The notes beneath the pieces were generated by a model. That model saw only the letters and a program-made list of their open reading frames with translations. It was not told the origin of the DNA and did not search any database. A program made the translations under genes and the position numbers. From Candidatus Poriferihabitaceae bacterium (GTDB lineage Bacteria; Pseudomonadota; Gammaproteobacteria; Arenicellales; Poriferihabitantaceae): a stretch of DNA of 64,000 bases. Shown here piece after piece: positions 8,821 to 59,731 of the stretch. Numbering within the stretch: position 1 is the first letter of the stretch; each line of letters starts with the position of its first letter. The stretch is from positions 2,509,900-2,573,899 of the forward strand of contig OZ245025.1 of assembly GCA_965223465.1 (NCBI GenBank), read 5' to 3'.

Positions 8821-8912
8821 CGAATCAATTTGCGCAAGCTTCCTGGGTAAATATTTCCGTTATAATTGCGTGACCATTATAGCGCGGTTAGCCAGTTAGT
8901 CGTAGAAACCAG

Positions 8913-10439: not shown

Positions 10440-10444
10440 CACGT

Positions 10445-10690: not shown

Positions 10691-11307
10691 TGGCTAAACA
10701 TATCGGTTTATTCGGCGGCTCCTTCAATCCGGTACATCGTGGGCATTTATTGGTGGTTAAATCGGTATTTGCGAACTTACAGCTTGATGCATTACGTTTT
10801 ATTCCCGCAGCCCAATCGCCATTAAAGGCCAAGCCCCAAATTGAAGATACCCACCGTTTAGCGATGCTGGAGCTTGCGATCAAAGGTGAGCCTGGGTTGA
10901 GTATCGATGCGCGGGAACTACATCGCTCTGGCCCTTCTTATACCATTGATACCCTACGCGGTATCGCCAAGGAAACCCCAAAAGACCATCTGTATTTAAT
11001 CATTGGGATGGATGCCTGGCTGGATTTCGAGCAGTGGCGAGATTGGCAAAAGATTATTAAGCTGTGTCGTTTGATCGTCATGACACGGCCCGCTTATAAA
11101 TCGCCGACGTTATCTGCATACTGGCGATCGAGGCAGGTCGAGAAAGTTGCACAACTTCGTGATGGAAAATTCATGTTGCTACCAGTGCCCGCTTCTGATG
11201 CCTCTTCTACCGAAATACGCAGAATTTTGGCTGCTGGTCAAGACGTGAGTCATTTTCTTGATCCTGAGGTTGAACACTACATTGCTGAAAACCAGCTTTA
11301 CAAATAG
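10690..11307 (+). CDS. nadD: Nicotinate-nucleotide adenylyltransferase
   Basis: 205 aa. GLFGGSFNPVHRGHL nucleotidyltransferase (H/T)xGH motif and ...SSTEIR ISSTxxR-type motif near the C-terminus. Confidence 0.93.
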   Translation: MAKHIGLFGGSFNPVHRGHLLVVKSVFANLQLDALRFIPAAQSPLKAKPQIEDTHRLAMLELAIKGEPGLSIDARELHRSGPSYTIDTLRGIAKETPKDHLYLIIGMDAWLDFEQWRDWQKIIKLCRLIVMTRPAYKSPTLSAYWRSRQVEKVAQLRDGKFMLLPVPASDASSTEIRRILAAGQDVSHFLDPEVEHYIAENQLYK

Positions 11308-11496
11308 ACAAGGGCAAAGCATAGGTCAATAGCGCGTTGAGCTTTAGTATTACTTAGACTAAAGATGTGTTAACCCATATTCCCAATTGACGCATTAATA
11401 GTTATGGTGACGTTTAGTAGTAATTATATTTGGTTATGTTATTTATTTGTGCTGTCGAGCTTCAAACAACTGCTAATGACGAATTGTTTAACGTCG

Positions 11497-46408: not shown

Positions 46409-47431
46409 TTGAAGCAATCCCCATATCAACTGGCACAACAGGAATCCCTCCGGTCAATTTATCATTTATATGGCCTTGAGCCACTGATTGTCGAAGAGGC
46501 GCTGAATGATTTACGCGAGGCATGCCGCAGTCATGCCTATCTGGAGCGCGAAAAACTCACGGTTGAGCCTGGGTTTGATTGGGATACATTGTTATCCAGC
46601 GGTCAGTCCATGTCGTTATTTGCGCAAAAACGCATCATTGAGTTGCGCATGCCCACGGGCCGCCCAGGCGACAAGGGCGCGAAAAACCTGGTCGAATATG
46701 CGCAATCACCACCACCTGATACCGTTCTGATCATTATCAGTGGTGAAATTAATAAGCGTGCGCAAAATAGCAAATGGTTCAAGGCGATTGATAGCGCTGG
46801 TGTGAGTATCGAAGCAGCCAAAATATATCCGAATCAAATGCCTGGATGGATCGAGCAGCGTATGCTCCAATTAGGTATTCAAGCCGAAGCTGGCGTGGCT
46901 AAAGTGATTGCCCACTATGTAGAGGGTAATTTATTGGCAGCTGCGCAACAGATTAATTTCCTCAGTTTGCATTGCAAAAAAAAGGTGTTGAGCGTGGTGC
47001 AAACTCAGAAACTAGTTTCTGATCAGGCTCGATTTACCAGTTTTGCCTTTGTGGATGCTTGTTTGGCTGGGCAGACCGCGCGCGCGGTGCGTATTTTGGC
47101 AAGTCTTCGAGGTGAAAAAATAGAACCCATCTTGATCGTTGCCGCGCTTTCACGCGAAACCGCTAAGTTGCTTTGCTTATCTCAAGGCAAATCGCTAGGG
47201 CAATCAATCCAGCCGTTATTTAAGCGCTTGGGAATATGGTCCAGTCGTGAGCGATTGGTACAAAGTGCGCTTGCCCGCGTCAGTCATATTGGTTGGTTAC
47301 GTATACATAGTAAAATAGCGGATATTGACGCGATGGTGAAGGGTCAAAGGCCATTAAAAAATAAAGATATTTGGGAGGAAATTGAACGTTTAGGTTTGGC
47401 GGTTTGTGGCCATGCCACAATGCTGAGATAG
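46409..47431 (+). CDS. holA: DNA polymerase III delta subunit
   Basis: 340 aa with TTG start. Assigned from its position after lptE, its length and its helical C-terminal domains. Confidence 0.85.
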   Translation: MKQSPYQLAQQESLRSIYHLYGLEPLIVEEALNDLREACRSHAYLEREKLTVEPGFDWDTLLSSGQSMSLFAQKRIIELRMPTGRPGDKGAKNLVEYAQSPPPDTVLIIISGEINKRAQNSKWFKAIDSAGVSIEAAKIYPNQMPGWIEQRMLQLGIQAEAGVAKVIAHYVEGNLLAAAQQINFLSLHCKKKVLSVVQTQKLVSDQARFTSFAFVDACLAGQTARAVRILASLRGEKIEPILIVAALSRETAKLLCLSQGKSLGQSIQPLFKRLGIWSSRERLVQSALARVSHIGWLRIHSKIADIDAMVKGQRPLKNKDIWEEIERLGLAVCGHATMLR

Positions 47432-47458
47432 GCCACAAATAGGATACGGTGGGGTAAC

Positions 47459-47884
47459 GTGGGAGACAGGCAAAACCTAATGAAGCGTCGGGCTTCGATC
47501 AAACAATTAGCGATGCCTTCGTTGTATTTATCGGCATGGTGTGTGCCGACTGTGAAATCCGCGATGCTCCCGGTACATGCACAAACTAGTGGCTGTATGC
47601 GAGATGATATTTTAGGCCGTTGGCAATTGGAGTTATTTGGTTTGGCTGCTTCGAGCAGAGAAATTACGTTTGCCGCTGATGGAACAGTAATGCACGCTTA
47701 CTTAAATCGTTGGCAATTTGCTAATGACGAGCTGCAAATCACGCAGGGCTTAACCTGGGCGCTAACTGGTTCGTTCGTGTCTTGCGATTCTTTGTCGGGT
47801 ACCTACGTCAATATTTTTACCAACCCGATACTGGGCAATCTTATCGTCCGTCGGGGAGATTGGCAGGCATTCAAAATCGACTAA
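47459..47884 (+). CDS. Hypothetical, probably secreted, small protein
   Basis: 141-aa ORF with a basic and then hydrophobic N-terminus (MKRRASIKQLAMPSLYLSAW...VHAQ). No family recognised and the start is ambiguous. Confidence 0.5.
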   Translation: MGDRQNLMKRRASIKQLAMPSLYLSAWCVPTVKSAMLPVHAQTSGCMRDDILGRWQLELFGLAASSREITFAADGTVMHAYLNRWQFANDELQITQGLTWALTGSFVSCDSLSGTYVNIFTNPILGNLIVRRGDWQAFKID

Positions 47885-48177
47885 ACTCGTTTACTCTGTA
47901 GTATACCGATGTATTTTTACGCCAATGTGTCATGGTACATTCGTAATAACAGGAAAAATAGTGGGCCAGACGATATCAACTACCGCAGGTGCAGCATTGT
48001 TTGGTAAGATTGGGTCTAAGGGTTGACTCAAGCAGAGCAGTTGGGTTGCTAACCAATAATTAATTTTATTTCGTGCCTTCCTGAAATCATAGAGAGCTTG
48101 CCGCATTATATTGTGACAGCTCATAAAGATGGTGGTCGGCACGAATACTCGGTTTGTGAGCAGGTGGTGATGTAACA

Positions 48178-51100
48178 GTGGAATGCCTAAAATGTGGCTT
48201 TGCAAATCCTGAGCAGGCGCGTTTCTGTGCCGGTTGTGGGGTAGGTATTACAGCAATTCAGTGCTCGCATTGCCATGCGGACAATGATCCAGGTAGCCGT
48301 TTCTGTGGGTCCTGTGGGCTATCTTTAGCGAAAGCATTTGGGGAAAATAATAACGCAAAAAAGAACATCGAACGACGTATGTTGACGGTGTTGTTTTGTG
48401 ACTTGGTTGACTCTACTGCACTGGTCGCTAGCCAGGACCCGGAATACAGCCGCAGTTTCATCCGTGAATATCAAAATGTCGCCAAAGAGGTCATCGAAAA
48501 TTTTGGTGGTCGAATTACCGAATATTTGGGTGATGGTATCGTTGCCCAATTTACCCGTCATGAAACCAATGCTGAGCGCGCCATTAACGCCGCCTTACAA
48601 ATTATTAAGTTGCTCGATCAGAAAGAACTCCCGATTGGTGATACGCAACAAAAAGCAGTTGTGCGATGTGGCATTGCCACCGGTATGGCAGTGGTGGGGG
48701 ATATGCTTGGGGATGAAGAAATTCGATCTAGCTCAGCGATTGGCTTGCCTTTAAACCTTGCAGCGCGAATTCAAAGTCTCGCGGAGGAGGATCAGGTGGT
48801 CATTGGTAAAACCACGTACCAGCTCGCGCGTGGTTTGTTTAAGTTCGAAAGTCTAGGTCATCACAATTTGAAAGGAATAAGAGAAAAGCAACCCGTTTGG
48901 CGCGTGGTGGCTAAGCAATCAATCAGCTCGCGATTTGTTGCGCACGCCGCAGAAATGACGCCGATGGTTGACCGCGAGGAAGTGATGGATCATCTATTGA
49001 GCCACTGGGATCAATGTAAGACGGGTGAGGCCGAGGCGATTGTCTTTTGGGGAGAGGCAGGTATTGGCAAATCCAGAATTGTTCAGGAATTTATCAAAAA
49101 AGTGGCGGCTGATTGTGCGTTTGTGGAGTACCAATGCTCACCGTATCACACCCACACCGCGCTCTACCCTTTGATCAGCGGCGTAGAGGCAGCTGCACGA
49201 TTCAAACATGGTGATTCAAACGAGGTTCGTTTAAGAAAATTAGAAAGGCTGGTGCGCTGGTCATCGGATAATTTCGAACACGATATGCCAGCCCTAGTAA
49301 ATTTACTATCCCTCTCAGCGGAAGATAAATGGCCAACACCTAATTTGAGCCCGGATGAAATAAAAGATTGGATATTTAAAGCAGCGATCAATAATCTAAT
49401 TTCGCTCTCGGCGAGAAAACCTTTATTAATCCAGTTGGAAGATGTGCAATGGATTGACCCAACCACAATGGAGCTAATCAAATGCTTGGTCAAGGAATTG
49501 GTCGGCCATCCGGTGTTGTTGTTGATCACTTCGAGGCCCGGATATGAAAATGATTTTAGCCAGTATCCACACGTTTCTACACTTAAGGTCGAACGACTAC
49601 CAAAATCTTATATGAAGCAGCTGGTGAACCAGATTAAAGGAGATAGTAAGTTGCTGGACCCGGTCATAGACGAAATGGTAGAGCGCACCGATGGTATCCC
49701 GTTATTTATGGAGGAGCTAAGCAAAAGCCTGCTTGAAACATCTGCGAGCGATCACCTTGAATCAAGTCAACTCGCGTTCAAAGACATACCCGCTACGCTA
49801 CATGATTCCCTACTATCCAGGTTGGACCATTTGCCAGAGGATACACGCTCAATTGCCCTATTGGCTTCGGTCATTGGGAGAGATTTTAGCTACGACCTTC
49901 TTGAGAGAATAGCGGATGTAGGCGATCAAAACCTGTACGAACTGTTGAGCCCATTGTTAGAAGCGCAGCTGGTTATGCAGCGCAACGCGCCGCCCAATGC
50001 GGAGTTTTCGTTCAAACACGCATTGGTTAGAGATGTGGCCTACGAAACTTTGTTGCAAAGTGATCGAGTGAATATACATCGTAAGATTGCCCAAAGTCTT
50101 GAACAAGATTACCCTGAGAATTTGCGTAGGAGCCCAGAACTGGTTGCGCGTCATTTTACTGAGGCCAAGTGCGATGATAAGGCGATTGAGTATTGGTTAG
50201 CGGCGGGTAAAAAGGCCGGCCAGAAATTCGCGCTGGTTGAGGCGAGAGAACATTTGACACTGGGTCTGAACTTGATAGACGGGCAGCCTGATACCGACGA
50301 AAATAAAATCGTTAAGCTGGAATATTTAGTTACATTGGGGCCGGTACTTATCGCATTAGATGGACCAGGTGCAGAGGCCACCCGAAACAATTATGCACAG
50401 GCGGTGGCATTATGCAAACAGCTGCCCGAATCAGAAAATCATTTTGTCGCTTTTTGGGGGCAATGGCATATTCACATGGATTATGATAGTGGTCAGGAAT
50501 CTGTGTGGGCCGAACGGCTGCAGCAATTAGCAGAGCGGTTGAATAAAGATGATCTTAAGTTACAGGCACACCATTGCCATTGGGCAACGTGTTTTCATCA
50601 AGCAGACTATGATAAAGCCTATGATCATCTCAATAAAGGTATTGCACTATATGATATTGATTTATATCGGCATCACTCGAGTATGTATGGCGGTCATGAC
50701 CCTAAAGTATGCGCGTTGGTGTTTCTATCGTGGGTAGAGTGGATACGTGGAAATTACCATCAGGCCGAAGCAGCACTCGAACAATGTGTTGCGCTAGGTG
50801 AAGAGCTGGATCACACAGGTACACGCATTCACGTCATTGAGATGAGCTTGTTACTGACACATTATCAACACGATACACAAAGAGCACGAAAACTCACCGA
50901 AGAATTAGCTCAACTATGTAAACATATAGACCTGCCTGAGTATGAGGGCAAACTCATGTGCTGCCGGGGGATTGTATTTACCTTACAAGGAAAGCTGGCA
51001 GAAGGCATTTCACTCTTGAAAAAAGGTTTGAAAGAAATCCATTCGGTTGGGACTCCTGAGGATGTGCCAGTATATACTGAGTATTTAGCCTATGCGTTGG

Positions 51101-51456
51101 GAGAGGCTAATAAAGCGAGCAAAGGTTTGGAATACCTGGATGATTTACTCGATCGGCTAGAGGGGCAGAATATTCGTTACTGGCACGCTGAAATATTTAG
51201 GCAAAAGGGAGAGTTGCATTCGCGTAAAGGTGAGGAAGCATTGGCATTATCTTTTTTATTGAAGTCACTCGAGACAGCACAACAGCAAAATGCCTTGTCT
51301 TTGGCGCTCCGCGCTTCACTCAGCCTATACCGGTATGATCAAAAAACCGGGGAATATCCAAATGCGTTAGAGCATCTGGATGCTGTAGTTAGGCAATTTG
51401 ATAAAAAGCAGGATTCTCTCGAGTTAACACAAGCCAAAAACTATTTAGAGCGTTAG
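48178..51456 (+). CDS. Multidomain signalling protein: double zinc-ribbon, class III adenylate/guanylate cyclase, STAND/AAA P-loop NTPase and TPR-like helical repeats
   Basis: 1092 aa with GTG start. CLKCGFANPEQARFCAGCG and CSHCHADNDPGSRFCGSCG are the zinc ribbons. ERRMLTVLFCDLVDST...GDG is the cyclase domain. Walker A is GEAGIGKSR and Walker B-like is LLIQLEDVQWID. The C-terminal about 450 aa are helical repeats. Confidence 0.88.
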   Translation: MECLKCGFANPEQARFCAGCGVGITAIQCSHCHADNDPGSRFCGSCGLSLAKAFGENNNAKKNIERRMLTVLFCDLVDSTALVASQDPEYSRSFIREYQNVAKEVIENFGGRITEYLGDGIVAQFTRHETNAERAINAALQIIKLLDQKELPIGDTQQKAVVRCGIATGMAVVGDMLGDEEIRSSSAIGLPLNLAARIQSLAEEDQVVIGKTTYQLARGLFKFESLGHHNLKGIREKQPVWRVVAKQSISSRFVAHAAEMTPMVDREEVMDHLLSHWDQCKTGEAEAIVFWGEAGIGKSRIVQEFIKKVAADCAFVEYQCSPYHTHTALYPLISGVEAAARFKHGDSNEVRLRKLERLVRWSSDNFEHDMPALVNLLSLSAEDKWPTPNLSPDEIKDWIFKAAINNLISLSARKPLLIQLEDVQWIDPTTMELIKCLVKELVGHPVLLLITSRPGYENDFSQYPHVSTLKVERLPKSYMKQLVNQIKGDSKLLDPVIDEMVERTDGIPLFMEELSKSLLETSASDHLESSQLAFKDIPATLHDSLLSRLDHLPEDTRSIALLASVIGRDFSYDLLERIADVGDQNLYELLSPLLEAQLVMQRNAPPNAEFSFKHALVRDVAYETLLQSDRVNIHRKIAQSLEQDYPENLRRSPELVARHFTEAKCDDKAIEYWLAAGKKAGQKFALVEAREHLTLGLNLIDGQPDTDENKIVKLEYLVTLGPVLIALDGPGAEATRNNYAQAVALCKQLPESENHFVAFWGQWHIHMDYDSGQESVWAERLQQLAERLNKDDLKLQAHHCHWATCFHQADYDKAYDHLNKGIALYDIDLYRHHSSMYGGHDPKVCALVFLSWVEWIRGNYHQAEAALEQCVALGEELDHTGTRIHVIEMSLLLTHYQHDTQRARKLTEELAQLCKHIDLPEYEGKLMCCRGIVFTLQGKLAEGISLLKKGLKEIHSVGTPEDVPVYTEYLAYALGEANKASKGLEYLDDLLDRLEGQNIRYWHAEIFRQKGELHSRKGEEALALSFLLKSLETAQQQNALSLALRASLSLYRYDQKTGEYPNALEHLDAVVRQFDKKQDSLELTQAKNYLER

Positions 51457-51510
51457 AGCTAAGGTTTAGTTATTTGTGTAACAAAAGGTAAGTTTGAATC
51501 ATGCTGAACT

Positions 51511-52200
51511 TTAGTGTGAGCCTACCATTCTACCTCTGGAGGCCATTCTGCCACGTGAAGCCATTCTGCCCCGGGAAGCCACTCGACCTCGGGATGCCAT
51601 TCGACCACGAGAACTCATCATTTCTTCCTCGTCTTCGCTGTAAATAGGATCGATGAGGATGTCTTCCAGCTTTCCGACTTCTACGTCGATGGCCATGGAG
51701 GTTTCATGTTTGTCCATTTTCCATACCCGAATATCGGAAGCAAAACGCCAACCCTTACCTTCAAGCCCGGTGTTTTGGGTTTCAAATCTCGGTAAACCTG
51801 GCCCTTCGTTCGCATCGGGGCATTCGCCATCTCCCCATACCAGATAAATCAGCGGATAGGGTAACTTGAAATACTGCCCTTCATACGAAAAGCTATAGAT
51901 ACGCGCCAGTCTGGGTGTTTTTCTTTGGGTGGCTTCGGCGGGCGGATCATGAGGTTTGCTATCGCCAGAGGTAGCCTTTTCTTCCTCAATAGATTGCGGG
52001 CCGAAGCGATCTCGTAGTAAGGTTTTTTCGGTCTCATCCGGCGGCATATCCAACCGTTCACCCGCGCCCCGCGAATCAAACGCAGAACCGGCTAATTCGT
52101 CTCGTACAAAACGCAAACTTTTAAAAGGTTTACCGAAAAGATATATTTTTGAGACTTCATACAGATCTTCCGTCCCATGAATAATCGGGTCTAACGCCAT
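51511..52200 (-). CDS. Hypothetical protein with an acidic patch and a C-terminal (A/S)SRGR(M/V) x5 tandem repeat; candidate substrate or precursor of the adjacent YcaO-TfuA pair
   Basis: 229 aa with a strong SD (caaggaggtaagtttcATG). It ends ...YSEDEEEMMSSRGRMASRGRVASRGRMASRGRMASRGRMVGSH*. It is the last gene of the co-oriented ycaO-tfuA-HExxH string. The N-terminal about 190 aa match no family I recognise. Confidence 0.75.
   Translation of the reverse strand: MALDPIIHGTEDLYEVSKIYLFGKPFKSLRFVRDELAGSAFDSRGAGERLDMPPDETEKTLLRDRFGPQSIEEEKATSGDSKPHDPPAEATQRKTPRLARIYSFSYEGQYFKLPYPLIYLVWGDGECPDANEGPGLPRFETQNTGLEGKGWRFASDIRVWKMDKHETSMAIDVEVGKLEDILIDPIYSEDEEEMMSSRGRMASRGRVASRGRMASRGRMASRGRMVGSH
51526..51615 (-). 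repeat. Five in-frame 18-nt tandem units encoding xSRGR(M/V)
   Basis: The units are read off codon by codon. Arg codons vary (CGT/CGA/CGG/AGA), as do Ser (TCT/TCC/TCA), Ala (GCA/GCT/GCC) and Gly (GGT/GGC), while the peptide is invariant except for one M/V. Confidence 0.9.
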
Positions 52201-52275
52201 GAAACTTACCTCCTTGGATAGCTTGGATGTCTAGACATTAACAGTATCAGAAAATGCGAAATATGTCATGTATTG

Positions 52276-53541
52276 TTAAAAAGGAATTTTTCGTCGCCTA
52301 AAAACTTCTTCAATTTCATCTAGATAGTGGCCAGAAGTCAATTCTTGATCCGCTTTTATCAGTGTATATACAACTTGTGGGAAATCCAGATCCCAGGATA
52401 ATTGCTCCCAGTTTAGGCTGAGTAGTACCCCTAAATAATCGCGCGCGTCAACCAGTGCCTTTTTAAAGCCTTCAGAATTTTGCATGTAGGCCTGATCAAA
52501 CATTGCCTGGATTTCAGCCTGATGCTCGGTTGATTCTGTGAATCCGCGTGATCGCTGATCAAGCGCCTCGTCTATTAAGTTTTCCGCCACTAGATTGTGC
52601 TGAAATACTTCAACCAGCAAATCAAACAAGCCGCCAGTAAAAGGTAGGCTCATTTCGTGTAGTTGTTTGATACTTAATTGTTCAAGTGGTGTATTTGGTG
52701 AGGGCACATGGTGCATTTGCAGATTATTACTCGCCATTCTGATCTGGCGGGTGTCGGATTCCTCCCCTACCCGATTGAGTATATTTCGGATGTATAGGTT
52801 TCCGCTGGTTTCATCCAGCAGGCGATCCAGCACCGAATTGAAATGCAGCAACGAAATAATCGCCACCATATCACTGGCGGTTTCATGAAAGGCGAAAAAC
52901 GCTGGGGTGGCCTTATCATCATCTGGCATACCAATTACGGAATAAAGAATGGTGTGTCCAAGTTCATGTGCCAGCACATCAAAATTGAGATTGAAAGGAA
53001 ATTTCTGGCCCGTATCATCGCGGCTATATCCCATTTCGATAAATCCAAAGCCAGCGTGGGCATTATCCCAATCCAGCCAGGGGACCAGCTCTAGGCGCTC
53101 AAATTGTGATTGAAAACTCCATTCAATCTCGCGCTGGAAATAGGTTTCCCAAATATCCAGCACCCAGCGCAAGGTACCGTACATGTGCGCTGCCTCAAAT
53201 TGGTGGGTGCCGACTTCTAGATGATCGTAGTGGCCGTCGCGACCAGGCAGTGCTGGGGGGTGTTGTTGGTCATTGTAAGGCGGCAGGAAATTGTTTTCAT
53301 AATGTGTTTTATCTATCGCATCGACAATATACATCCGATGGTCAGCTGGTCCGGGCTGTATTTCAGATGGGCTCAGCGACACCCAAACCGTCTCTGGTTC
53401 CTGATAATCGCTCAATAGGGGGGACTGTGGGAACAAGCGAAAGCGCGTCCCGTGTTCGCGAAAATCAAGCGCAAGCTCGCTCAGCGCACAGCAGGGGCAA
53501 TCGGCGAGCGATCCTTGCTGATGTCTATGTGCGGTTTCCAT
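52276..53541 (-). CDS. Thermolysin-like (gluzincin) HExxH...ExxSD metallopeptidase-motif protein
   Basis: 421 aa. VLAHELGHTILYS followed 24 residues later by FHETASD (compare thermolysin HELTH...NEAISD). N-terminal Cys cluster CPCC. The start overlaps the tfuA stop by 17 nt. Confidence 0.75.
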   Translation of the reverse strand: METAHRHQQGSLADCPCCALSELALDFREHGTRFRLFPQSPLLSDYQEPETVWVSLSPSEIQPGPADHRMYIVDAIDKTHYENNFLPPYNDQQHPPALPGRDGHYDHLEVGTHQFEAAHMYGTLRWVLDIWETYFQREIEWSFQSQFERLELVPWLDWDNAHAGFGFIEMGYSRDDTGQKFPFNLNFDVLAHELGHTILYSVIGMPDDDKATPAFFAFHETASDMVAIISLLHFNSVLDRLLDETSGNLYIRNILNRVGEESDTRQIRMASNNLQMHHVPSPNTPLEQLSIKQLHEMSLPFTGGLFDLLVEVFQHNLVAENLIDEALDQRSRGFTESTEHQAEIQAMFDQAYMQNSEGFKKALVDARDYLGVLLSLNWEQLSWDLDFPQVVYTLIKADQELTSGHYLDEIEEVFRRRKIPF

Positions 53542-54859
53542 TGGAAGAATCTACCTCCTGGTAAAGATATTCCCCTAAAATCATAGCATAAAGTTCGTCC
53601 ACGTCCCTACAACCCAGATTAAATGCATAATCTTCTATGCGGGACGGCATTTCCATGCGCAGTTGTTGGGTGAAATACCAATCACATAATTGTAATTTAT
53701 CCACTTCATTTAATTGCTCGAGCTCAGGTTTGTGTTCAAGTTTAGCTAGCGTCAACTTTTTATCGTTCGCACGTTGCGTAAGGTCACTTATCGCACCTGT
53801 TTGGTTTAAGTAATTGAGTAAAATATGCACGCTTAGTGCGTTGGAAAAAGAATCGGTAGTGGATTGGTTGATATGTGCCTGCCAGAGCTGTGCTAACAGT
53901 TTATCCAGAGCCTCAGGTGCTTGATGTAATTGATTAAGGTCTGTGTTTTTGACAGAATTTTGTGGGGTTGAGCAACCCAGCATGGTTTGCAACGCTCGAT
54001 TCAAGGCCTGGAAGTAAGCCGGGCCTTGTAGTCGAAGCTCATCTAGTGCCGGGCTATCGATGGCGTGCGATTGATCGATCTCTTCAATGGCGTTCTGCCA
54101 TTGGGACGTATGTTGAAATGTGCTCGAATGACGCTTGTGCGATGCAATTGGTTCAGTAACGTATTCGCTAATCGCTTTCAACATGGTGATTGCGTCGGCT
54201 TGTTTTTGGTCGACCGCGTTCTTATGCAACCAATTCTTAAGCTTAGCCAAATCCTGCTGTGCGACACCCTGGTGCTTTGCCTGTTTGAGTACTGTGGTGT
54301 ACTGGCGGTCAGCGTAAAACAGTGACTTGGCCAATTGCCCCAATTGCTGGCAGCTGTCCTCATCGATAATATTTTTCTGGACTGCTTTAGCCAGAGAAAA
54401 GCGAATATTGACCATCGCATCGCTGGCGGCCGAATAACCCATTTCGGCGGGGCCATGTACAACAGCTACCTCGTCATCGTCTTCGAAAGCTTCATCATTG
54501 AATGGCGGCAGTATACCGGTAGAATAGGCTTCGTAGATCTTGCCATAACCGAGCATACCAAACTGGTCTAGTTCGGCTGCGCGTAAAGCCCCCATGCTCG
54601 CGGCGCCAAACACCAAGGTGCCTTGATTCATTGCCCATAATATTTCTTTGTGCCACACTGCTGGGACCTGATTGAAATATCCATCAACAATGCCGATTAT
54701 TTTTGGCCGAAACAAAGTGGTGATGCGATACACATCACCGTACTTTACCGGGGGTAGATACGTGGCCTCAAGAAGTTGCTCGGCCTTGGCAAGGCCTAAA
54801 CTTGGACCCACAAATATGAATATTTCGTCCCTGCCCATGTTATTGACCAAGGATATCAA
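53525..54859 (-). CDS. TfuA-domain protein with a long C-terminal extension
   Basis: 444 aa. The N-terminal about 230 aa carry TfuA hallmarks (FVGPSL, LPPVKYGDVYR, IGIVDGYF, HKEILWAM, GAASMGALRAAEL, DDDEVAVVHGP). The C-terminal about 215 aa are unassigned. It overlaps or abuts the ycaO stop (alternative start ATG 54838). Confidence 0.85.
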   Translation of the reverse strand: MISLVNNMGRDEIFIFVGPSLGLAKAEQLLEATYLPPVKYGDVYRITTLFRPKIIGIVDGYFNQVPAVWHKEILWAMNQGTLVFGAASMGALRAAELDQFGMLGYGKIYEAYSTGILPPFNDEAFEDDDEVAVVHGPAEMGYSAASDAMVNIRFSLAKAVQKNIIDEDSCQQLGQLAKSLFYADRQYTTVLKQAKHQGVAQQDLAKLKNWLHKNAVDQKQADAITMLKAISEYVTEPIASHKRHSSTFQHTSQWQNAIEEIDQSHAIDSPALDELRLQGPAYFQALNRALQTMLGCSTPQNSVKNTDLNQLHQAPEALDKLLAQLWQAHINQSTTDSFSNALSVHILLNYLNQTGAISDLTQRANDKKLTLAKLEHKPELEQLNEVDKLQLCDWYFTQQLRMEMPSRIEDYAFNLGCRDVDELYAMILGEYLYQEVDSSNGNRT

Positions 54860-56069
54860 ACGGTAAATCTAAGAGGGCTTTGGCTCTTGGACCTGGTACG
54901 TAATCGCTATGCCAATGACCGTAGGCGCCCTCCAAGCCGGGGATGACCACTTTAACGACCGCTAACCCCAGATCCGGTTGGCTCAGATCAACCGCGATAA
55001 CCTGTTGGACCCCAATAGCGCGCAGTTGGGTTAAACACTGCGCCAGATCATCCTCTATGGTGTCAAATTCATAGCTTATTAGCTGATCAAATTGCTTTTC
55101 CGGGCGATGGTTTTGGAGCTGTACTTGCCCTTGTAGGCGACGTTTTAAGCGTTTTTTGGGTTGGTATTCCGACCAACCGATATCATCGCGACTTCCCGCG
55201 ATGAAGGTAGTTCGCGCCTGCGCTGCCTCGGTTAGGGCGCGTGCTAGGGCGATCTCTTTGGAGGGGTGGCAGCCAGCGCCAAATTCAGGGTCGGCCCAAT
55301 CGTGTTCATCTCCCATTGCCAGACAAATGAAAGCCGGCAAATCTAGGTCGCTGGTCATGTCCCATATTTTCACTTTGATCCTGGCGGCTTTGAACTTTTC
55401 CATTAACCAGCGGCAGTTTCGATCTGCAATCGATGTTGGATCCACGCTAGTTGCTGCCTGGGCGTGCAGCGCGCATTGGTTCCAGAGCGCTTCCGCGTCG
55501 CGTTCAACCACTTCAGTAATCGCATGACAACAGGCCTCCTTGAAGGTATTTCCCGATGCCAACCCGTTGGTATTAGCGGCAAAATGACCCGCTCCTTTGT
55601 GCCCGGGTAAAGTGTAATCCGTACTCACGATTTCATAGGGTACCCAGCATGCTTGCTCGCTGAGTAAGTTAAGGCCCTCTATCCAATAAATCGGCTCAGA
55701 CGGATTTAATTTTTTGCGTCCACTTCTCGCGAGCAACTTGGTGTTGGCCAGGGGAATTTTATCTTTTAGCTGATGCGTGCTCGCGTAGCGCAGTGGGTGG
55801 CTGATGTTTTCAGCATGGTAGGTCTCAACCGATTCCATGATCGCGGATACTTTAGCGGCTTCGAGGGTCGAGCCTTTGCCCTGCGAGACGGATATGGATC
55901 GGGATTGTGGTCGAAATGCAGTATAAGTAGGGATGCCCACGCGATCCAGACCGGTAATATTGGCGGTGCGGCTTATGCCCATTTGCTTCAACAATGGTTG
56001 CACCTGGTTAAGCGTGTCAGTAGGAGTAAGCGTTCGATGGGTACCCAAACGATAGGCTTTATTTTCCAT
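54840..56069 (-). CDS. YcaO-domain protein (TfuA-associated type)
   Basis: 409 aa. The YcaO core pattern is present: SVSQGKGSTLEAAKVSAIMESVETY, TNGLASGNTFKEACCHAITEVVERDA and the C-terminal region. A TfuA gene lies immediately downstream. Confidence 0.88.
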   Translation of the reverse strand: MENKAYRLGTHRTLTPTDTLNQVQPLLKQMGISRTANITGLDRVGIPTYTAFRPQSRSISVSQGKGSTLEAAKVSAIMESVETYHAENISHPLRYASTHQLKDKIPLANTKLLARSGRKKLNPSEPIYWIEGLNLLSEQACWVPYEIVSTDYTLPGHKGAGHFAANTNGLASGNTFKEACCHAITEVVERDAEALWNQCALHAQAATSVDPTSIADRNCRWLMEKFKAARIKVKIWDMTSDLDLPAFICLAMGDEHDWADPEFGAGCHPSKEIALARALTEAAQARTTFIAGSRDDIGWSEYQPKKRLKRRLQGQVQLQNHRPEKQFDQLISYEFDTIEDDLAQCLTQLRAIGVQQVIAVDLSQPDLGLAVVKVVIPGLEGAYGHWHSDYVPGPRAKALLDLPFDILGQ

Positions 56070-56109
56070 CTGTGCTCAGTGGGTGGACTTGGCGTTGTTC
56101 AAGGCGTGC

Positions 56110-56460
56110 TTAATCTGCCGCCCATACCGCCAATTCATTGCCGTGTGGGTCAGTAAACTGGAAACGCCTACCCCCTGGAAAAGCAAAAATATCTTGTACA
56201 ATTTTACCACCGGCGGCAATGATTTGATCGCGCTTGGACTCCAGGTCATGCGTAAATAACACCACCAGCACAGCGCCGTTTTGGGTAGTAGAATACTTGT
56301 CTGAAAGGTAAAACCCACCACTCAAGCGGCCATCCTCAAACGCTTTGTACTCACCGCCATAATCGGTAAACTCCCAACCAAATACTTGTTCGTAAAACGT
56401 TTGCACCGCATCAAAATTAGTGGCTGGAAGCTCGATATAGTCAATTTGTGTCTTTGTCAC
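56110..56460 (-). CDS. VOC (glyoxalase/bleomycin-resistance) family protein
   Basis: 116 aa. Single VOC module (IDYIELPATNFDAVQTFYEQVFGWEF...FTDPHGNELAVW). The start overlaps the ccoS stop, and its own stop lies 40 nt upstream of ycaO. Confidence 0.8.
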   Translation of the reverse strand: MTKTQIDYIELPATNFDAVQTFYEQVFGWEFTDYGGEYKAFEDGRLSGGFYLSDKYSTTQNGAVLVVLFTHDLESKRDQIIAAGGKIVQDIFAFPGGRRFQFTDPHGNELAVWAAD

Positions 56461-56629
56461 GCTGATCTTCCTCGCTTAGGTTCTTTGGCGAATCATCATC
56501 CATCAAGATGGTATGTGCAGGGCCTTGCATATCATCAAACTGGCCAGATTTAACCGACCAGAAAAATACCGCTGCGATGATAAATGCAATCACGATAGCC
56601 AGCGGAATCAGTAAAAAAAGTACTTCCAT
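56441..56629 (-). CDS. ccoS: cbb3-type cytochrome oxidase maturation protein CcoS/FixS
   Basis: 62 aa. MEVLFLLIPLAIVIAFIIAAVFFWSVKSGQFDDMQGPAHTILMDDD is the canonical CcoS sequence pattern. Confidence 0.88.
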   Translation of the reverse strand: MEVLFLLIPLAIVIAFIIAAVFFWSVKSGQFDDMQGPAHTILMDDDSPKNLSEEDQRDKDTN

Positions 56630-56735
56630 TGTCAGCCCAGGTGTTTAGTTGCGACTATTTTGGCATAATTGCTTGGCTTTAGCGCAAAGAAATCTCCGTT
56701 GCGCATTCGTTCAAGCCAGCTTCAACGGAACCTAT

Positions 56736-57296
56736 ATGAATTTGAGTTTACCGGGCCGATTATTTTATATAGTGGGTGCCTCTGGCGCGGGTAAAGATAG
56801 TTTGATTCACGCCGCAGCCGGATACGCAAATAAGCAAGACAAGCTTATCGTTGCTCCGCGTGTGGTGACGCGCACACAGCAGCAATCTGAACATGATGTG
56901 GCGTTGGACGAACGGACCTTTTTAAAACGCGTTCATTCGGGTGTGTTTTTATTTTACTGGCAAGCGCACGGGTTTCATTATGGAATTGAAAAATCAATCT
57001 TGAAACAGGTGTATGCAGGTAACATTGTATTGGTCAATGGCTCCCGCGCTTATATTGCCGATGTACGCCGGATTTATCCTGCTACGGTGATTGTGGGCGT
57101 TAAAGCTGACCAAGATCAACTACAGGAACGATTGCTAAAACGTGGCAGAGAAAACCAGGCAGACATTGACGAGCGCTTGGAGCGAAATCGCTTGTATAAC
57201 CAGGAACTTGAGCTTGCCGATAGGGTGATTGATAATGATCAGCCACTAGAACAGGCGGCGTTGGCATTGTTGTCTTTGGTGCGTGAACCGAGTTAG
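56736..57296 (+). CDS. phnN: Ribose 1,5-bisphosphate phosphokinase PhnN
   Basis: GRLFYIVGASGAGKDSL...VNGSRA...LKRGRENQADIDERL is collinear with E. coli PhnN (LIWLMGPSGSGKDSL...VNGSRA...ENRGRENASEINARL). I start it at ATG 56736; the ORF is open from 56649. Confidence 0.85.
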   Translation: MNLSLPGRLFYIVGASGAGKDSLIHAAAGYANKQDKLIVAPRVVTRTQQQSEHDVALDERTFLKRVHSGVFLFYWQAHGFHYGIEKSILKQVYAGNIVLVNGSRAYIADVRRIYPATVIVGVKADQDQLQERLLKRGRENQADIDERLERNRLYNQELELADRVIDNDQPLEQAALALLSLVREPS

Positions 57297-57301
57297 AGGT
57301 A

Positions 57302-59731
57302 TTAGCCTTTTTTTAACCTCAACGCGTTCAGGACTACCAATAAGGAACTCAAGGACATACCTATCGCCGCTAGCCAGGGTGGAACGTAACCCATGGCGGC
57401 CGCAGGGATCGCCAGCAAGTTGTAACTAACTGCCCAGATTAGGTTTTGTTTGATAATCCTATGCGTTTTGTGCGCTATATTGAGCGCTGTTTGGATGGCG
57501 CTTAGTTTGGGCGTAAGCAAGATAATGTCACTTCCCGCACTCGCTAGCGCTGCAGCACCTTCAGTCGCGATTGCACAATCGGCGCCGGCGAGGACGGCGG
57601 CATCATTTACGCCATCTCCAACCATGCCCACTATTTTGGAATGATTATCAGCATGTTGAAATTGCTTCACGATGCTTAATTTATCGCTGGGTAGCTGCCC
57701 AGCATAGATGGTGTCAATGCCGACTTGGGCACCAATGTGTTGCGCAGCAGCCGTATGGTCACCGGTGAGCATAATGCATTGAATACCTTTCGCCTGCAGA
57801 AAGCGAATTAACTCTGCGCTTTGGGCCTTAATGCGATCGCTAAGCGCGTAAATAGCGATAATGTTGCCTTGACGAGCGAGTACGACTTGGGTGTAATCCT
57901 CGAATACGGAGCGGGTTTGGGTATCTAATGTGCAGCCCGTTTGGGTTTCAATAAACGTGGGCGTGCCTAGATAAAACGTGTCACCATCAATACGCGCGCT
58001 TAAGCCTGCCCCCGGTGTGTTTTGTACCTCAGTGGCAACTAGGGTTGATGGATATTGCTCAAAAGCTTTGGCGATGGGATGTTCTGAGTGCTGCTCAATT
58101 GCCGCACAGATCGCAAAATGATCATCTACAAAAGCTGGATCAAGCACTTGGTGATTTTTAATTTCCAGCTTGCCTTCGGTCAGGGTGCCTGTTTTATCAA
58201 AAAACATAACCTCTAATTTATCCAGCGTTTCCAGCGCGGATTTGTTGCTGATAACGATCCCCCGCCGCATCAAATGGCCGATTGCAGTGCTGATGCTGGC
58301 TGGCGTAGCGAGCGAAAGTGCGCAGGGACAAGAGACAATCAATACTGCGATGGTGGGGGTTAGCCAATCTTGCGGAGTGTGTTGATACCAATATAACCCG
58401 GTTAAAGTGGCAAGACTGATTACGGCTAAAACGAACCATCCCGCGATACGGTCTGCAAGTTGGGCGATTGCTGGTTTTGCCTGTTGTGCCTTATCCAATA
58501 GATGTTGAATTCCGGACAATACCGTCTCGCTGCCCGTGCGGGTGATTTCAGCAGTAATTGGGCTATCGATATTCATACTACCACCGATGAGCTGATCACC
58601 CTTGGTTTTAAATTGGGGCAGGCTTTCGCCAGTCAAAATAGATTCATCCAGGCTACTTTTACCGCTCAAGACAACCGCATCCGCAGGCACGGTATCACCC
58701 GCATGAATCACCACTTGATCGCCCATGGTTAAATCCAGTGCGGGTAAGGATTGAATGCGACCATCGGCCACTAATTTTCGCGCCAGAATCGGGGCCGCCT
58801 GGCTCACAATGTCGGTGCTATCTGCAGCACGTTTACGCGCGCTGATTTCTAGATAACGAGCGCCGAGCAGCAGAAAACTAAACATACAGACCGAATCAAA
58901 GTAAATCTCCCCACGTCCGGTAATCAAGGAATAGACGCTAGCTAAAAACGCCAAGCCCATACCCAGCGCAACAGGGGTGTCCATACCAAAACGCCGATTT
59001 CGAAGATCTTTTAATGCACCATTGAAAAACGGTTTTGCGGCATAAAAAATGACGGGTAACGTTAAGATCAAACTGGCGCGTTGGATAAGCAATTTAATAA
59101 AGGTGTCCATCGTGCCATCGTCCATATACAGACTAATAGCCAATCCCATGACTTGCATCCCAAATATACCGGCTACACCCAGACGCTTTAGAATATCTTT
59201 GCGTTCTTTTTCAAGAATAAAATGGCGTTGATTTGGGTCATAGGGGTGCGCAGTGTAGCCAATGAGCTGAATCGCTTTTAATATTTCGGATAGACTGATG
59301 ACCCGTTCATCCCATTGCACATTCGCTTTTAGATTGGTGTAGTTAATCTCCACGTTTACCACACCGTTGAGTTTGCCCAGATGTTGTTGATTCAACCAAA
59401 CACAAGCTGCGCAATTAATGCCTTCCAGGATCAGTGCTGCTTCTTGAATATGCGCATCCGTGCGGCGAACAAACGACTTTTGTACATCAGGATGATCATA
59501 AAGCTCAAGCTGGCGCAGCTGTTCTGGAATAAGCAATTCACCCGGTTGGGGCTTTTCGGTGCGATGCTTGTAGTATGACTCCAGACCTGCCTCTACAATG
59601 GCATGCGCTACCGCTGCACACCCCTGACAGCACATCGCACGCTCTCGCCCCAAAATAGGCACATGGATATCCAATGATGGATCAATATCCAGATCACAGT
59701 GATAACACTGCTGAGCAGTAGGCGCAGGCAT
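57302..59731 (-). CDS. ccoI: Copper-translocating P1B-type ATPase CcoI/FixI
   Basis: 809 aa. N-terminal CYHC...CCQGC metal-binding region, HMA-like domain (GINCAACV), CPC motif (SCPCAL), DKTGTLT and GDGVNDA. Confidence 0.92.
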   Translation of the reverse strand: MPAPTAQQCYHCDLDIDPSLDIHVPILGRERAMCCQGCAAVAHAIVEAGLESYYKHRTEKPQPGELLIPEQLRQLELYDHPDVQKSFVRRTDAHIQEAALILEGINCAACVWLNQQHLGKLNGVVNVEINYTNLKANVQWDERVISLSEILKAIQLIGYTAHPYDPNQRHFILEKERKDILKRLGVAGIFGMQVMGLAISLYMDDGTMDTFIKLLIQRASLILTLPVIFYAAKPFFNGALKDLRNRRFGMDTPVALGMGLAFLASVYSLITGRGEIYFDSVCMFSFLLLGARYLEISARKRAADSTDIVSQAAPILARKLVADGRIQSLPALDLTMGDQVVIHAGDTVPADAVVLSGKSSLDESILTGESLPQFKTKGDQLIGGSMNIDSPITAEITRTGSETVLSGIQHLLDKAQQAKPAIAQLADRIAGWFVLAVISLATLTGLYWYQHTPQDWLTPTIAVLIVSCPCALSLATPASISTAIGHLMRRGIVISNKSALETLDKLEVMFFDKTGTLTEGKLEIKNHQVLDPAFVDDHFAICAAIEQHSEHPIAKAFEQYPSTLVATEVQNTPGAGLSARIDGDTFYLGTPTFIETQTGCTLDTQTRSVFEDYTQVVLARQGNIIAIYALSDRIKAQSAELIRFLQAKGIQCIMLTGDHTAAAQHIGAQVGIDTIYAGQLPSDKLSIVKQFQHADNHSKIVGMVGDGVNDAAVLAGADCAIATEGAAALASAGSDIILLTPKLSAIQTALNIAHKTHRIIKQNLIWAVSYNLLAIPAAAMGYVPPWLAAIGMSLSSLLVVLNALRLKKG

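Follow-up and report, generated by a model that had tools for sequence, protein, structure and literature searches.

A conserved proteobacterial YcaO-TfuA cassette with a putative tandem-repeat substrate protein in a Candidatus Poriferihabitaceae bacterium

In the thioamitides, such as thioviridamide and thiostreptamide S4, YcaO and TfuA introduce consecutive thioamides into stretches rich in Ala, Met, and Val, and these compounds require a C-terminal Cys for AviCys formation and dedicated tailoring genes. In the thiovarsolin system of Streptomyces varsoviensis, the precursor VarA contains up to five imperfect tandem repeats with an invariant Arg in each, and YcaO and TfuA install a Pro-C(=S)-Arg thioamide, several tiny linear peptides being produced per precursor (PMC6511847). 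The TfuA-YcaO thioamidated RiPPs characterised so far are all actinobacterial (PMC8120280). YcaO enzymes also modify folded proteins without cleaving them, namely uL16 in E. coli and McrA (PMC13063428). Here, we describe a proteobacterial locus in which a protein ending in tandem Arg-containing units is encoded next to YcaO and TfuA. No description of this gene cassette was found in open-access papers or bioRxiv preprints. Among the known systems, thiovarsolin VarA, compared through its published description, appears to be the closest analogue.

The window, a stretch of 64,000 nucleotides from a Candidatus Poriferihabitaceae bacterium (GCA_965223465.1, contig OZ245025.1), contains the features listed in Table 1.

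Table 1. Features of the cassette, with positions counted from the first letter of the window.
Feature	Position	Strand	Basis or remark
YcaO, 409 aa, first gene of the operon	54840..56069	-	Pfam PF02624, 8.5e-83
TfuA, 444 aa	53525..54859	-	Pfam TfuA, 1.5e-44
Thermolysin-fold HExxH protein, 421 aa, putative processing metalloprotease	52276..53541	-	HELGH at 52954-52968
Repeat protein (whole), 229 aa, putative precursor or substrate	51511..52200	-	N-terminal domain, linker, array, cap
Acidic linker SEDEEEMM, abutting the array on its N-terminal side	51616..51639	-	
Five tandem hexapeptide units (SSRGRM, ASRGRV, and ASRGRM three times)	51526..51615	-	Proposed repeated core or modification sites
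C-terminal cap VGSH and stop codon	51511..51525	-	Matches the family-wide [VIA]-G-[PAGS]-H-Q cap, His invariant
Double zinc ribbon, class III nucleotidyl cyclase, AAA_16 (STAND), and TPR protein, 1092 aa	48178..51456	+	Pfam domains

The operon runs from YcaO through TfuA and the HExxH protein to the repeat protein, its last gene. Overlaps of 20 nt between ycaO and tfuA and of 17 nt between tfuA and the HExxH gene are followed by a gap of 75 nt before the repeat gene. The gene for the 1092-aa cyclase-TPR protein, a putative sensor or regulator, is convergent to the repeat gene, adjoins the operon in most loci, and constitutes the fifth gene of the cassette. The order YcaO-TfuA-HExxH-repeat protein was observed in essentially every locus with enough flanking sequence among approximately 40 loci from Gamma-, Beta-, and Alphaproteobacteria, the hosts including Arenicellales, Ca. 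Poriferihabitaceae, Burkholderiales, Competibacteraceae, Ruegeria spp., and Aurantimonas coralicida. The association of YcaO/TfuA with the repeat tail, which had been proposed from the window, is therefore strong, being backed by an overlapping operon and by linkage in these loci across three classes. Neither an exporter or immunity gene nor a second candidate substrate was conserved in the cassette, and no obvious signal peptide was found by inspection of the N-terminal sequences of the repeat protein and the HExxH protein, so a secreted natural product is not evident. The ORFs of 204 and 213 aa upstream of ycaO in alphaproteobacterial loci were unrelated and were rejected as a sixth conserved gene. 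A scan of positions 47000-57500 against Rfam gave no match, and promoter and terminator scans at the operon ends gave no excess over the shuffled expectation. Four of the five cassette proteins had no match among the PADLOC defence models; the likeness of the cyclase domain to Pycsar cyclases reflects generic class III cyclase homology, and the cassette was not assigned to a known anti-phage defence system.

The YcaO domain is full length (positions 1-325 of the 325 in the Pfam PF02624 profile), and its nearest solved structure is MJ1094 (1.2e-36). In TfuA, the family domain occupies the N-terminal approximately 236 residues, of which residues 14-236 match PDB 6xp8 (2.1e-33), and the C-terminal extension of approximately 210 residues had no significant match and belongs to no recognised family. 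The best NCBIfam models were TIGR03266, the McrA-glycine thioamidation YcaO, at 254.5 bits against a cut-off of 365, and NF033432 (ThioGly_TfuA_rel) at 225.9 bits against a cut-off of 235.2. By profile and solved structure, the two proteins thus have their nearest characterised relatives in MJ1094 and the TfuA of PDB 6xp8, from the enzyme pair that forms thioamides in methanogens. Since both score below the equivalog cut-offs, they were not assigned as McrA-glycine thioamidation equivalogs, and the substrate cannot be transferred from McrA. The methanogen system also differs in that a single Gly of a folded enzyme is modified there, whereas the putative substrate here is a bacterial repeat tail, and in that the window TfuA carries the additional C-terminal region.

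The 229-aa protein ends in IYSEDEEEMM, the five hexapeptide units, and VGSH, and the array is exactly as read in the initial annotation. All five units contain Arg, and the tail contains no Cys. The N-terminal domain is conserved (ARIYSFSYEGxYFKLPYPLIYLVWG ... DIRVWKMD...), His228 is invariant in the alignment of close homologues, and caps recur across the family. The reading frame is backed by the same architecture in 34 close and more than 500 distant homologues. A 48-aa antisense ORF is present at 51501..51647 and needs no separate explanation. Judged from the sequences, the combination of a conserved N-terminal domain, a variable repeated C-terminus, and a conserved cap is a precursor-like layout. 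Against this reading, the conserved "leader" of 180 aa is unusually large and its fold was not predicted (pLDDT 49). The AlphaFold2 model of the whole protein, based on a 32-sequence alignment, had low confidence (pLDDT 48.8) with a disordered tail, and was too poor for a fold search.

At the nucleotide level, the units have diverged. Arg is encoded by CGT (twice), CGA (three times), CGG (once), and AGA (four times); Ser by TCT, TCC (three times), and TCA, plus AGT for the first Ser; Ala by GCA, GCT (twice), and GCC; and Gly by GGT (three times) and GGC (twice), in agreement with the codon usage noted earlier. Tandem Repeats Finder reported a period of 18 with 4.6 copies and matches of only 79%, and the mean nucleotide identity between units was 0.72. 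The same codon was used in 13/46 same-residue comparisons between units (0.28), compared to 0.24 expected if codons were drawn independently at the frequencies found in the window (simulation, P(>=observed) = 0.26); synonymous sites among the units are thus at the random level. The Nei-Gojobori method gave a pS of 0.70 and a saturated dS of approximately 2.1, a pN of 0.11 (0.05 when unit 1 was left out), and a dN/dS of approximately 0.03-0.06. These values bear out the earlier proposal that the peptide has been held while the DNA drifted, and show purifying selection on each unit. That the array is an unconstrained low-complexity product of recent replication slippage has next to no probability and is already refuted for the window by the codon and Nei-Gojobori results. 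Recent duplication of units at the DNA level does occur in a few relatives (L009, L011, and L016, with same-codon fractions of 0.68-0.79); however, the window units combine random synonymous sites with nearly identical peptides, hundreds of homologues keep the array architecture, and saturated synonymous sites with a held peptide were also found in most relatives. If the substrate reading proposed below is right, the family would be an unusually clean natural case of peptide-level concerted evolution, in which selection maintains identical units despite randomised DNA, and in which occasional homogenisation events have been caught in some relatives.

The repeat-protein family comprises at least 545 clusters at 50% identity (545 representatives, E<=1e-3), is overwhelmingly proteobacterial, and is annotated as "hypothetical" where its members are named in the source; sequence and family-profile searches found no relatives in Pfam, NCBIfam, or the PDB. 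Most members end in two to nine tandem units of five to eight residues each, a unit as a rule containing a single Arg or Lys, and exactly one such residue was present in 102 of 119 family consensus units. Across orthologues, the array is kept, its copy number varies within this range, and the units are uniform within a protein, which answers a check proposed in the initial annotation. Its expectation of a conserved unit sequence did not hold, because the units differ between lineages and change in concert (GR, GK, AR, AT, MR, AV, MA, GD, GS, and others), nor is the period constant. The view that an anionic pro-region neutralises a cationic product gained support: the charge of the 15 residues preceding the array was negatively correlated with the unit charge (Spearman -0.59, 119 family members).

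Variation among the units also bears on what the tail may do. Arg is followed by G, A, S, M, T, or V in different lineages, many units contain Asp or Glu, and Met is missing from the unit types RGAAA, RSAAA, VSGAR/VSGAK, YSGGKA, and ARADL. Ser, Thr, and Cys are all missing from GMNAR, GAMVR, ARADL, RGAAV, and many other unit types, which excludes azoline formation as a chemistry common to the family. The shared elements are only the backbone and one basic residue, which points to a backbone modification. It could instead be supposed that the tail is an unmodified, disordered basic segment that binds nucleic acids through RG or Cu(I) through Met, and that YcaO acts on another substrate. The abundance of Arg, Gly, and Met in the window units and the disordered tail in the AlphaFold2 model agree with such a segment, but we regard it as very improbable, since the YcaO/TfuA linkage is conserved across classes, the cassette offers no other conserved candidate substrate, the family conserves neither Gly after Arg nor Met, and net-neutral, Asp-bearing units such as SRGDM, SRADL, and SRSDL are common. 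As family properties, both the RG/RGR nucleic-acid-binding tail and the Met-containing metal-binding tail suggested earlier are therefore unlikely; Arg-Gly(-Gly) is not the conserved repeat element of an RG/RGG class, and Met is not conserved as a ligand across homologues as in a Met-rich Cu(I)-binding class.

The view that the units are equivalent core peptides or modification sites, also put forward initially, is the best supported one from the operon linkage, and the chemistry is putative. In the presence of tandem Arg-containing units next to YcaO and TfuA, the cassette resembles the thiovarsolin locus, from which it differs in several respects. VarA has a predicted leader, and the conserved N-terminal domain of approximately 180 aa has no counterpart in the published description; host peptidases are invoked there instead of a dedicated protease (PMC6511847), whereas an HExxH protein is encoded here. 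None of the heme-oxygenase-like VarO, the ATP-grasp ligase, the amidinotransferase, and the MFS exporter of the thiovarsolin system was found among the conserved neighbours of the cassette. Moreover, thiovarsolin is actinobacterial, whereas the repeat-protein family belongs overwhelmingly to Proteobacteria, and the cassette has contiguous, nearly perfect units of 5-8 residues and a cyclase-TPR gene. The family units RGAAA, SRMAM, and GAMVR are rich in Ala, Met, Val, and Gly, as in thioamitides, but the core is repeated here and single there, AviCys is impossible with a tail that contains no Cys, and tailoring-type genes are absent among the five conserved genes according to Pfam. Multi-core precursors (cyanobactin PatE, fungal ustiloxin/phomopsin, and repeat graspetides) share the several near-identical cores of variable copy number; recognition or cleavage spacers separate their cores, whereas the units of the cassette abut. 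The exception is one locus (L007), where the YcaO-TfuA-HExxH trio occurs in a second, paralogous copy and the next gene encodes a peptide of 96 aa that carries "KMQMRGRMVASD" as a core three times, with acidic spacers in between. By its sequence, this peptide, for which a homologue search gave no matches, would be classed as a classical multi-core precursor, and its core resembles the window unit.

The HExxH protein has more than 1036 homologues. It contains HELGH followed downstream by FHETASD, and H192, E193, H196, E220, and D224 were invariant in 32 homologues. No Pfam family matched at E<=0.01, peptidase families included; its family profile also had no match among PDB sequences. The AlphaFold2 model was of good quality (pLDDT 81.8, pTM 0.86), and Foldseek related it to M36 fungalysins, M4 thermolysin, LasB, vibriolysin, and aureolysin (probability 1.0, E 2e-6 to 3e-4), with all of the top 24 PDB matches belonging to M36 or M4 (target-normalised TM 0.49-0.66). 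The protein shares with these peptidases the two-lobe fold, the HExxH motif, and a downstream E-x-x-S-D, the FHETASD stretch being comparable with the NEAxSD motif of M4 enzymes. It differs from them in being only 9-15% identical to the solved structures and in that neither an FTP/PepSY propeptide nor a signal peptide was detected. The protein appears to be cytoplasmic and dedicated to its operon partner, and its role as the protease of the tail is a guess from fold and position.

Taken together, it seems reasonably probable that the 229-aa protein is the dedicated substrate of the five-gene cassette, whose tail is thioamidated by YcaO/TfuA and then cut by the HExxH protein. The large N-terminal domain would function as a leader or in recognition, and the array would present to YcaO/TfuA five equivalent units with one Arg or Lys each amid small residues, while the acidic linker may balance the charge of the cationic array. 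YcaO would use ATP to activate backbone amides and TfuA would deliver sulfide, giving one or more thioamides per unit. The cytoplasmic thermolysin-fold metalloprotease would most likely cleave the modified tail, either releasing a single kind of thioamidated peptide, 5-8 residues long, in several copies or removing the N-terminal domain. The cyclase-(AAA)-TPR protein, near which a Crp-like cNMP-binding protein is often encoded, might regulate the cassette or sense the product. If this proposal is true, a large unannotated family of thioamide-modified repeat peptides is present in marine, sponge-associated, wastewater, and soil Proteobacteria, and a thioamidated repeat-peptide pathway would have a dedicated, fold-assigned protease, which thiovarsolin lacks.

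A variant in which the tail is thioamidated and never released, serving for example as a polythioamide metal-binding or regulatory tail while the HExxH protein functions in turnover or scaffolding, has a small chance of being correct. Full-size proteins are indeed targets of YcaO thioamidation (McrA, and uL16 in E. coli; PMC13063428), and the N-terminal domain here combines large size with good conservation. In addition, no exporter is conserved, and conservation of the cap, including the invariant His, agrees with use of the tail in intact form. On the other hand, the thermolysin-fold protein with an intact catalytic motif lies invariably between the TfuA and substrate genes, the spacer-separated cores of the L007 peptide look made for cutting, and multi-core precursors typically contain identical units in several copies.

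Comparison of near-identical alleles raised another possibility for the role of the product. Loci L008 and L009 are 91-100% identical in DNA outside one island of approximately 900 bp with 43-61% identity, which covers exactly the tail and the last approximately 195 residues of the convergent TPR protein. Within it, RAN is changed to RSN in 6/6 units and the TPR residues are 55% identical, compared to 97-99% elsewhere in the protein. A milder trough was found at the corresponding site between the window and L005 (DNA identity 0.55-0.67 versus approximately 0.82). There, identity falls to 44% over the final 45 residues of the cyclase protein, whose C-terminus is its most divergent part in comparison with the closest orthologue. 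This joint replacement of tail and TPR C-terminus hints at a ligand-receptor pair, in which the tail or its peptides would bind the TPR C-terminus of the adjacent cyclase and switch cNMP synthesis with a Crp-like readout; we consider such a pair rather unlikely. The units might then be uniform since each fits one receptor, and tail and receptor might diversify jointly like pherotypes, which is an equally tentative suggestion. In favour of the pair, the cyclase and TPR domains are kept even where the AAA module is lost, as in Ruegeria and Aurantimonas, in which a protein of approximately 590 aa replaces the 1092-aa protein, and 12 of the approximately 40 loci, from three classes, have a gene for a Crp-like cNMP-binding protein no more than 5 kb away. 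However, unit sequence and TPR C-terminus covaried weakly and not significantly across the family (rho 0.14-0.20, permutation p 0.11), no marked divergence island separates R-type from K-type Ruegeria loci, and L034 has no cyclase gene. A single recombination tract across two convergent 3' ends could also arise by chance, and poor conservation is common at C-termini. With respect to RRNPP-like criteria, the TPR and the cyclase output are conserved, and the covariation is as given above; the N-terminal sequence shows no evident signal peptide, and only 2 loci have an adjacent Opp-type binding protein. An Opp/Dpp importer was rejected as a conserved partner, as the clustering of ABC ATPases is non-specific and those two loci are the only ones with a neighbouring peptide-type binding protein.

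In a full signalling circuit, the thioamidated unit peptide or tail would be read by the TPR C-terminus, and cAMP or cGMP would lead to Crp-type transcription; we hold this circuit to be speculative and its probability to be low. Tail units and receptor C-terminus would be swapped together as a specificity cassette, in the manner of pherotypes, and such a circuit would explain why units are uniform within each protein, why they differ between orthologues, and why two alleles differ only there. A peptide signalling circuit of this sort would be of a kind not described in Proteobacteria, although we give little weight to that prospect. If the substrate proposal for the 229-aa protein is right, the cyclase-TPR partner and the replacement island make the hypothesis of thioamide-peptide signalling directly testable. 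Cultured entry points are Ruegeria denitrificans CECT 5091, R. halocynthiae, R. arenilitoris, R. haliotis, and Aurantimonas coralicida DSM 14790. The R. denitrificans CECT 5091 locus (L031) has ycaO at 5497-6759, tfuA at 6756-8066, the HExxH gene at 8041-9405, and the repeat gene at 9542-10441. In R. denitrificans, the array consists of seven perfect VSGAR units with a same-codon fraction of 0.30 compared to 0.26 expected.

The 229-aa repeat protein ended in ...IYSEDEEEMM-SSRGRM-ASRGRV-ASRGRM-ASRGRM-ASRGRM-VGSH*, and translation of the ORF placed the five units exactly where the initial annotation had located them, with the codon inventory that it had listed. Tandem Repeats Finder reported the array with period 18 and only 79% matches. 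The same amino acid was encoded by the same codon between units in 13/46 cases (0.28), compared to a fraction of 0.24 expected from independent draws on the codon usage of the window (P(≥observed) = 0.26). Nei-Gojobori counts gave a pS of 0.70 (dS about 2.1) and a pN of 0.11 (0.05 without unit 1), and the dN/dS among units, a calculation proposed in the initial annotation, was therefore about 0.03–0.06. The peptide has thus been kept while the synonymous sites were fully randomized, as had been claimed. This combination rules out recent slippage as the source of the array, and the hexapeptide repeat is real.

The repeat gene was the last of four minus-strand genes, among which the YcaO, TfuA, and 421-aa protein genes overlapped by 20 and 17 nt. 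The best relatives of YcaO and TfuA in NCBIfam were the McrA-glycine thioamidation pair, yet the scores were below the equivalog cut-offs; the nearest solved structures were MJ1094 and TfuA of 6xp8, respectively. TfuA carried a C-terminal extra region, for which no recognizable relatives were found in Pfam and PDB. Between the window and the closest orthologous locus (L005), few stretches differed as strongly as part of this extension, and the extension was missing from a second cassette in locus L007 and from Aurantimonas (276-aa TfuA).

Features of the cassette and its surroundings in the window and in homologous loci
Feature	Sequence	Position	Strand	Assignment or remark
YcaO	window	54840-56069	minus	Pfam 8.5e-83, full length
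TfuA	window	53525-54859	minus	Pfam 1.5e-44
TfuA C-terminal extra region	window	53525-54150		~210 aa (residues ~237-444)
Divergent part of TfuA extension	window	53741-54190		
421-aa protein	window	52276-53541	minus	without Pfam match
Repeat protein, 229 aa	window	51511..52200	minus	ORF translation
Pre-array stretch	window	51616-51639		
Five-unit array	window	51615-51526		
Cyclase-AAA-TPR protein, 1092 aa	window	48178-51456	convergent to repeat gene	Pfam: double zinc ribbon, class III nucleotidyl cyclase, AAA_16 (STAND), TPR repeats
141-aa ORF	window	47459-47884		between holA and cyclase gene
cbb3-oxidase maturation genes	window	56441-56629, 57302-59731		
cbb3-oxidase maturation genes	L005	1814-5758		
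Crp-like genes	L001	12358-12768		
Crp-like genes	L006	12453-13106		
GIY-YIG and HTH genes	L001	4428-4718, 6294-6587		
Split cyclase-AAA-TPR gene	L001	8832-12129		four ORFs
Peptide ABC importer	L004	8489-13465		Opp/Dpp type
Peptide ABC importer	L025	10483-16284		Opp/Dpp type
Second trio	L007	13239-16686	minus	YcaO, TfuA, HExxH protein, with the 96-aa ORF
Divergence island	L008	2100-3000		
Divergence island	L009	about 10410-11310		

Six loci obtained via exact-protein look-ups and 35 from one genome per species were compared, all scanned with local profiles. The order YcaO-TfuA-HExxH protein-repeat protein was found in essentially every locus with enough flank (about 40 loci). A homologue of the cyclase-AAA-TPR protein adjoined the operon. 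Most gammaproteobacterial loci had it in convergent orientation, and in most beta- and alphaproteobacterial ones it lay upstream on the operon strand. In Ruegeria and Aurantimonas, the partner was a cyclase+TPR protein of ~590 aa without the AAA module, and one Ruegeria locus (L034) had no cyclase-TPR partner. In 12 of the ~40 loci, from three proteobacterial classes, a Crp-like cNMP-binding gene (often with HTH_Crp) was present no more than 5 kb from the cassette; a local profile search detected none in the whole 64-kb window. The closest named relatives of the window copy were Arenicellales and Ca. Poriferihabitaceae MAGs. Other named hosts included Burkholderiales, Competibacteraceae, Geminicoccus, Aurantimonas coralicida, R. 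denitrificans, R. halocynthiae, R. arenilitoris, R. haliotis, a single Verrucomicrobiota MAG, and a single Actinomycetota MAG. In L001/L010, from an Arenicellales MAG, small GIY-YIG and HTH genes were inserted between the cassette genes; the four operon genes were intact, and the cyclase-AAA-TPR gene was split into four ORFs and is therefore apparently decaying.

A word-indexed search yielded 34 homologues of the repeat protein, the few with a source name being "hypothetical". When 1.84 billion representatives were searched with a full HMM, 545 passed E≤1e-3 and 379 passed E≤1e-10; no relatives were found in Pfam, NCBIfam, and PDB. The N-terminal domain had the core ARIYxFSYEGxYYxLPxPxxFLVxGxG ... 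DIRxWxxDKxDxSxRxDxExG..ILL, and a tandem array formed the C-terminal end of most members. Of the 173 members with a length of 140 aa or more, 119 had arrays under a strict repeat criterion, and most inspected examples of the remainder had degenerate arrays or were truncated. Another 59 loci with this tail architecture came from a metagenome scan. The periods were 5 (44 members), 6 (41), 7 (23), and 8 (8). Unit types listed as 6-mers included SRGRM, SRGKM, SRARM, SRATM, SRMRM, SRAVM, SRMAM, SRGDM, SRGSA, RGAAA, RSAAA, SRADL, SRSDL, and YSGGKA; the 5-mers included VSGAR, VSGAK, GMNAR, GMHAR, GAMVR, and AGGRV, and the 7-mers SGQRARV and ARSSGMM. Exactly one Arg or Lys was present in 102 of the 119 consensus units, and this was the sole conserved side chain per unit. 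The initial annotation had proposed to check whether orthologues vary in repeat number around a conserved unit; copy number did vary (2–9) and units were near-identical inside one protein, but the unit sequence was not constant between lineages. Conserved caps closed the arrays ([VIA]G[PAGS]HQ..., xRHRFK, and xRGxxD), with an invariant His in the alignment of close homologues. In many beta- and gammaproteobacterial members (tails of L016-L019, L049-L066, and P0013-P0033), the last unit, directly before a G-P-H-Q cap, had Phe for the small residue before Arg (x-F-R-x-x-[MLIV]); the window copy had no Phe there.

In most loci, units shared codons about as often as expected at random, including the seven perfect VSGAR units of R. 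denitrificans (same-codon fraction 0.30 vs 0.26 expected). In three loci (L009, L011, and L016), the fractions were 0.68–0.79, a sign that units were recently duplicated or converted at the DNA level; new unit variants are therefore able to spread through an array. After that, purifying selection preserves the array for long enough that its synonymous sites saturate. L005, the closest orthologue, had 88% protein identity to the window repeat protein, and every one of its five units had Lys for Arg at position 5; the identical-codon fraction was 0.64 gene-wide and only 5/18 in the orthologous units (binomial P 0.002). Across 119 members, the net charge of an array unit was anticorrelated with that of the 15 residues preceding the array (Spearman −0.59, uncorrected for phylogeny); the mean charge of this preceding segment was −0.5, −2.5, and −5.2 for neutral, +1, and +2 units, respectively. 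This result supports the earlier proposal that the anionic stretch offsets the cationic repeat.

More than 1036 homologues of the 421-aa protein were found, the best 120 of which were at least 50% identical, and H192, E193, H196, E220, and D224 were invariant among the homologues (HELGH ... FHETASD). Its AF2 model was good (pLDDT 81.8, pTM 0.86), and the best 24 Foldseek PDB matches all belonged to either M36 (fungalysins) or M4 (thermolysin, LasB, vibriolysin, aureolysin, and protealysin; prob 1.0, E 2e-6 to 3e-4). No peptidase-family profile matched in Pfam or in a PDB-sequence profile search, and no signal peptide was evident from reading the N-terminal sequence by eye. We call this protein a thermolysin-fold gluzincin, not an M4 member.

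These proteins suggest a pathway in which YcaO/TfuA would act on the repeat tail as their substrate, with YcaO activating backbone amides with ATP and TfuA delivering sulfide. Because many unit types have no Ser, Thr, or Cys, the common chemistry must be backbone modification, and azolines are excluded as the general product. The TfuA-associated YcaOs characterized so far form thioamides (PMC6511847, PMC8120280, PMC13063428), and a thioamide is the probable product on the tail. The thioamide of thiovarsolin sits on the residue before Arg (PMC6511847), and that of E. coli uL16 is on Met82, directly after Arg81 (PMC13063428). Since both adjoin Arg, and Arg/Lys is conserved in each unit, our best guess by analogy is that the thioamide would lie beside the basic residue. 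The thermolysin-fold enzyme may then cut the tail to repeated short peptides or take off the N-domain, and the cyclase-TPR protein may regulate or sense. The analysis establishes architecture, conservation, folds, motifs, and selection; the identity of the substrate, the thioamide, the cleavage, and the function are inferred from these.

L007 contained a second, paralogous trio encoding YcaO, a 257-aa TfuA, and a 376-aa HExxH protein, without an adjacent cyclase. After the trio came a 96-aa ORF that had no large N-domain and contained three "KMQMRGRMVASD" cores with acidic spacers between them; the core resembled SRGRMAS of the window. No relatives of this peptide emerged from a word-based homologue search. 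The ORF has a conventional multi-core precursor layout and provides independent support for the repeat as substrate.

Thiovarsolin is the closest known system, in which YcaO and TfuA likewise accompany a precursor with repeats. However, the repeat family has a conserved N-domain of ~180 aa, whereas for VarA only a leader peptide is predicted; the units of the family are contiguous and nearly perfect, a dedicated thermolysin-fold protein and a cyclase-TPR partner are present, the distribution is proteobacterial, and the var accessory genes are absent from the cassette. A thioamitide identity was ruled out, as the tail has no Cys and the cassette no further conserved tailoring genes. A global survey contains many uncharacterized proteobacterial TfuA-YcaO clusters, among which this cassette was not resolved (PMC8120280), and no published description was found in the open-access and bioRxiv literature. 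The interest lies in the size of this unannotated family, which has cultured members, in a striking selection signature, and in a testable link to cyclic-nucleotide signalling.

Two contigs of one Ca. Poriferihabitaceae MAG (L008 and L009) were 91–100% identical over about 9 kb except for one island of ~900 bp at 43–61% identity. Three elements fell within it: the 3′ terminus of the repeat gene, with RAN replaced by RSN in each of the six tail units; the intergenic spacer; and the ~195 C-terminal residues of the convergent cyclase-AAA-TPR protein, for which identity was about 55%, vs 97–99% upstream. A milder trough occupied the same place between the window and L005 (DNA identity 0.55–0.67 vs a background of about 0.82), and the 45 C-terminal residues of the cyclase protein were 44% identical vs 76–100% elsewhere. 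Family-wide, unit sequence and TPR C-terminus showed only a weak trend (rho 0.14–0.20, permutation p 0.11), and no marked island was found between Ruegeria R-type and K-type loci. Co-diversification of the repeat tail with a TPR receptor is an attractive possibility.

In the window and L005, cbb3-oxidase maturation genes (a CcoS/FixS-like 62-aa ORF, a copper P-type ATPase of CcoI/FixI type, and FixH) adjoined the cassette, with lptE and holA on its other side, a neighbourhood not kept in other loci. DNA identity between the two dropped to 0.59, vs about 0.8, in the 141-aa ORF. In two loci, L004 and L025, importer genes (SBP_bac_5, permeases, and ATPases with oligo_HPY domain) directly followed the repeat gene; the importer was rejected as a general family partner. 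L004 also had msrA and msrB nearby.
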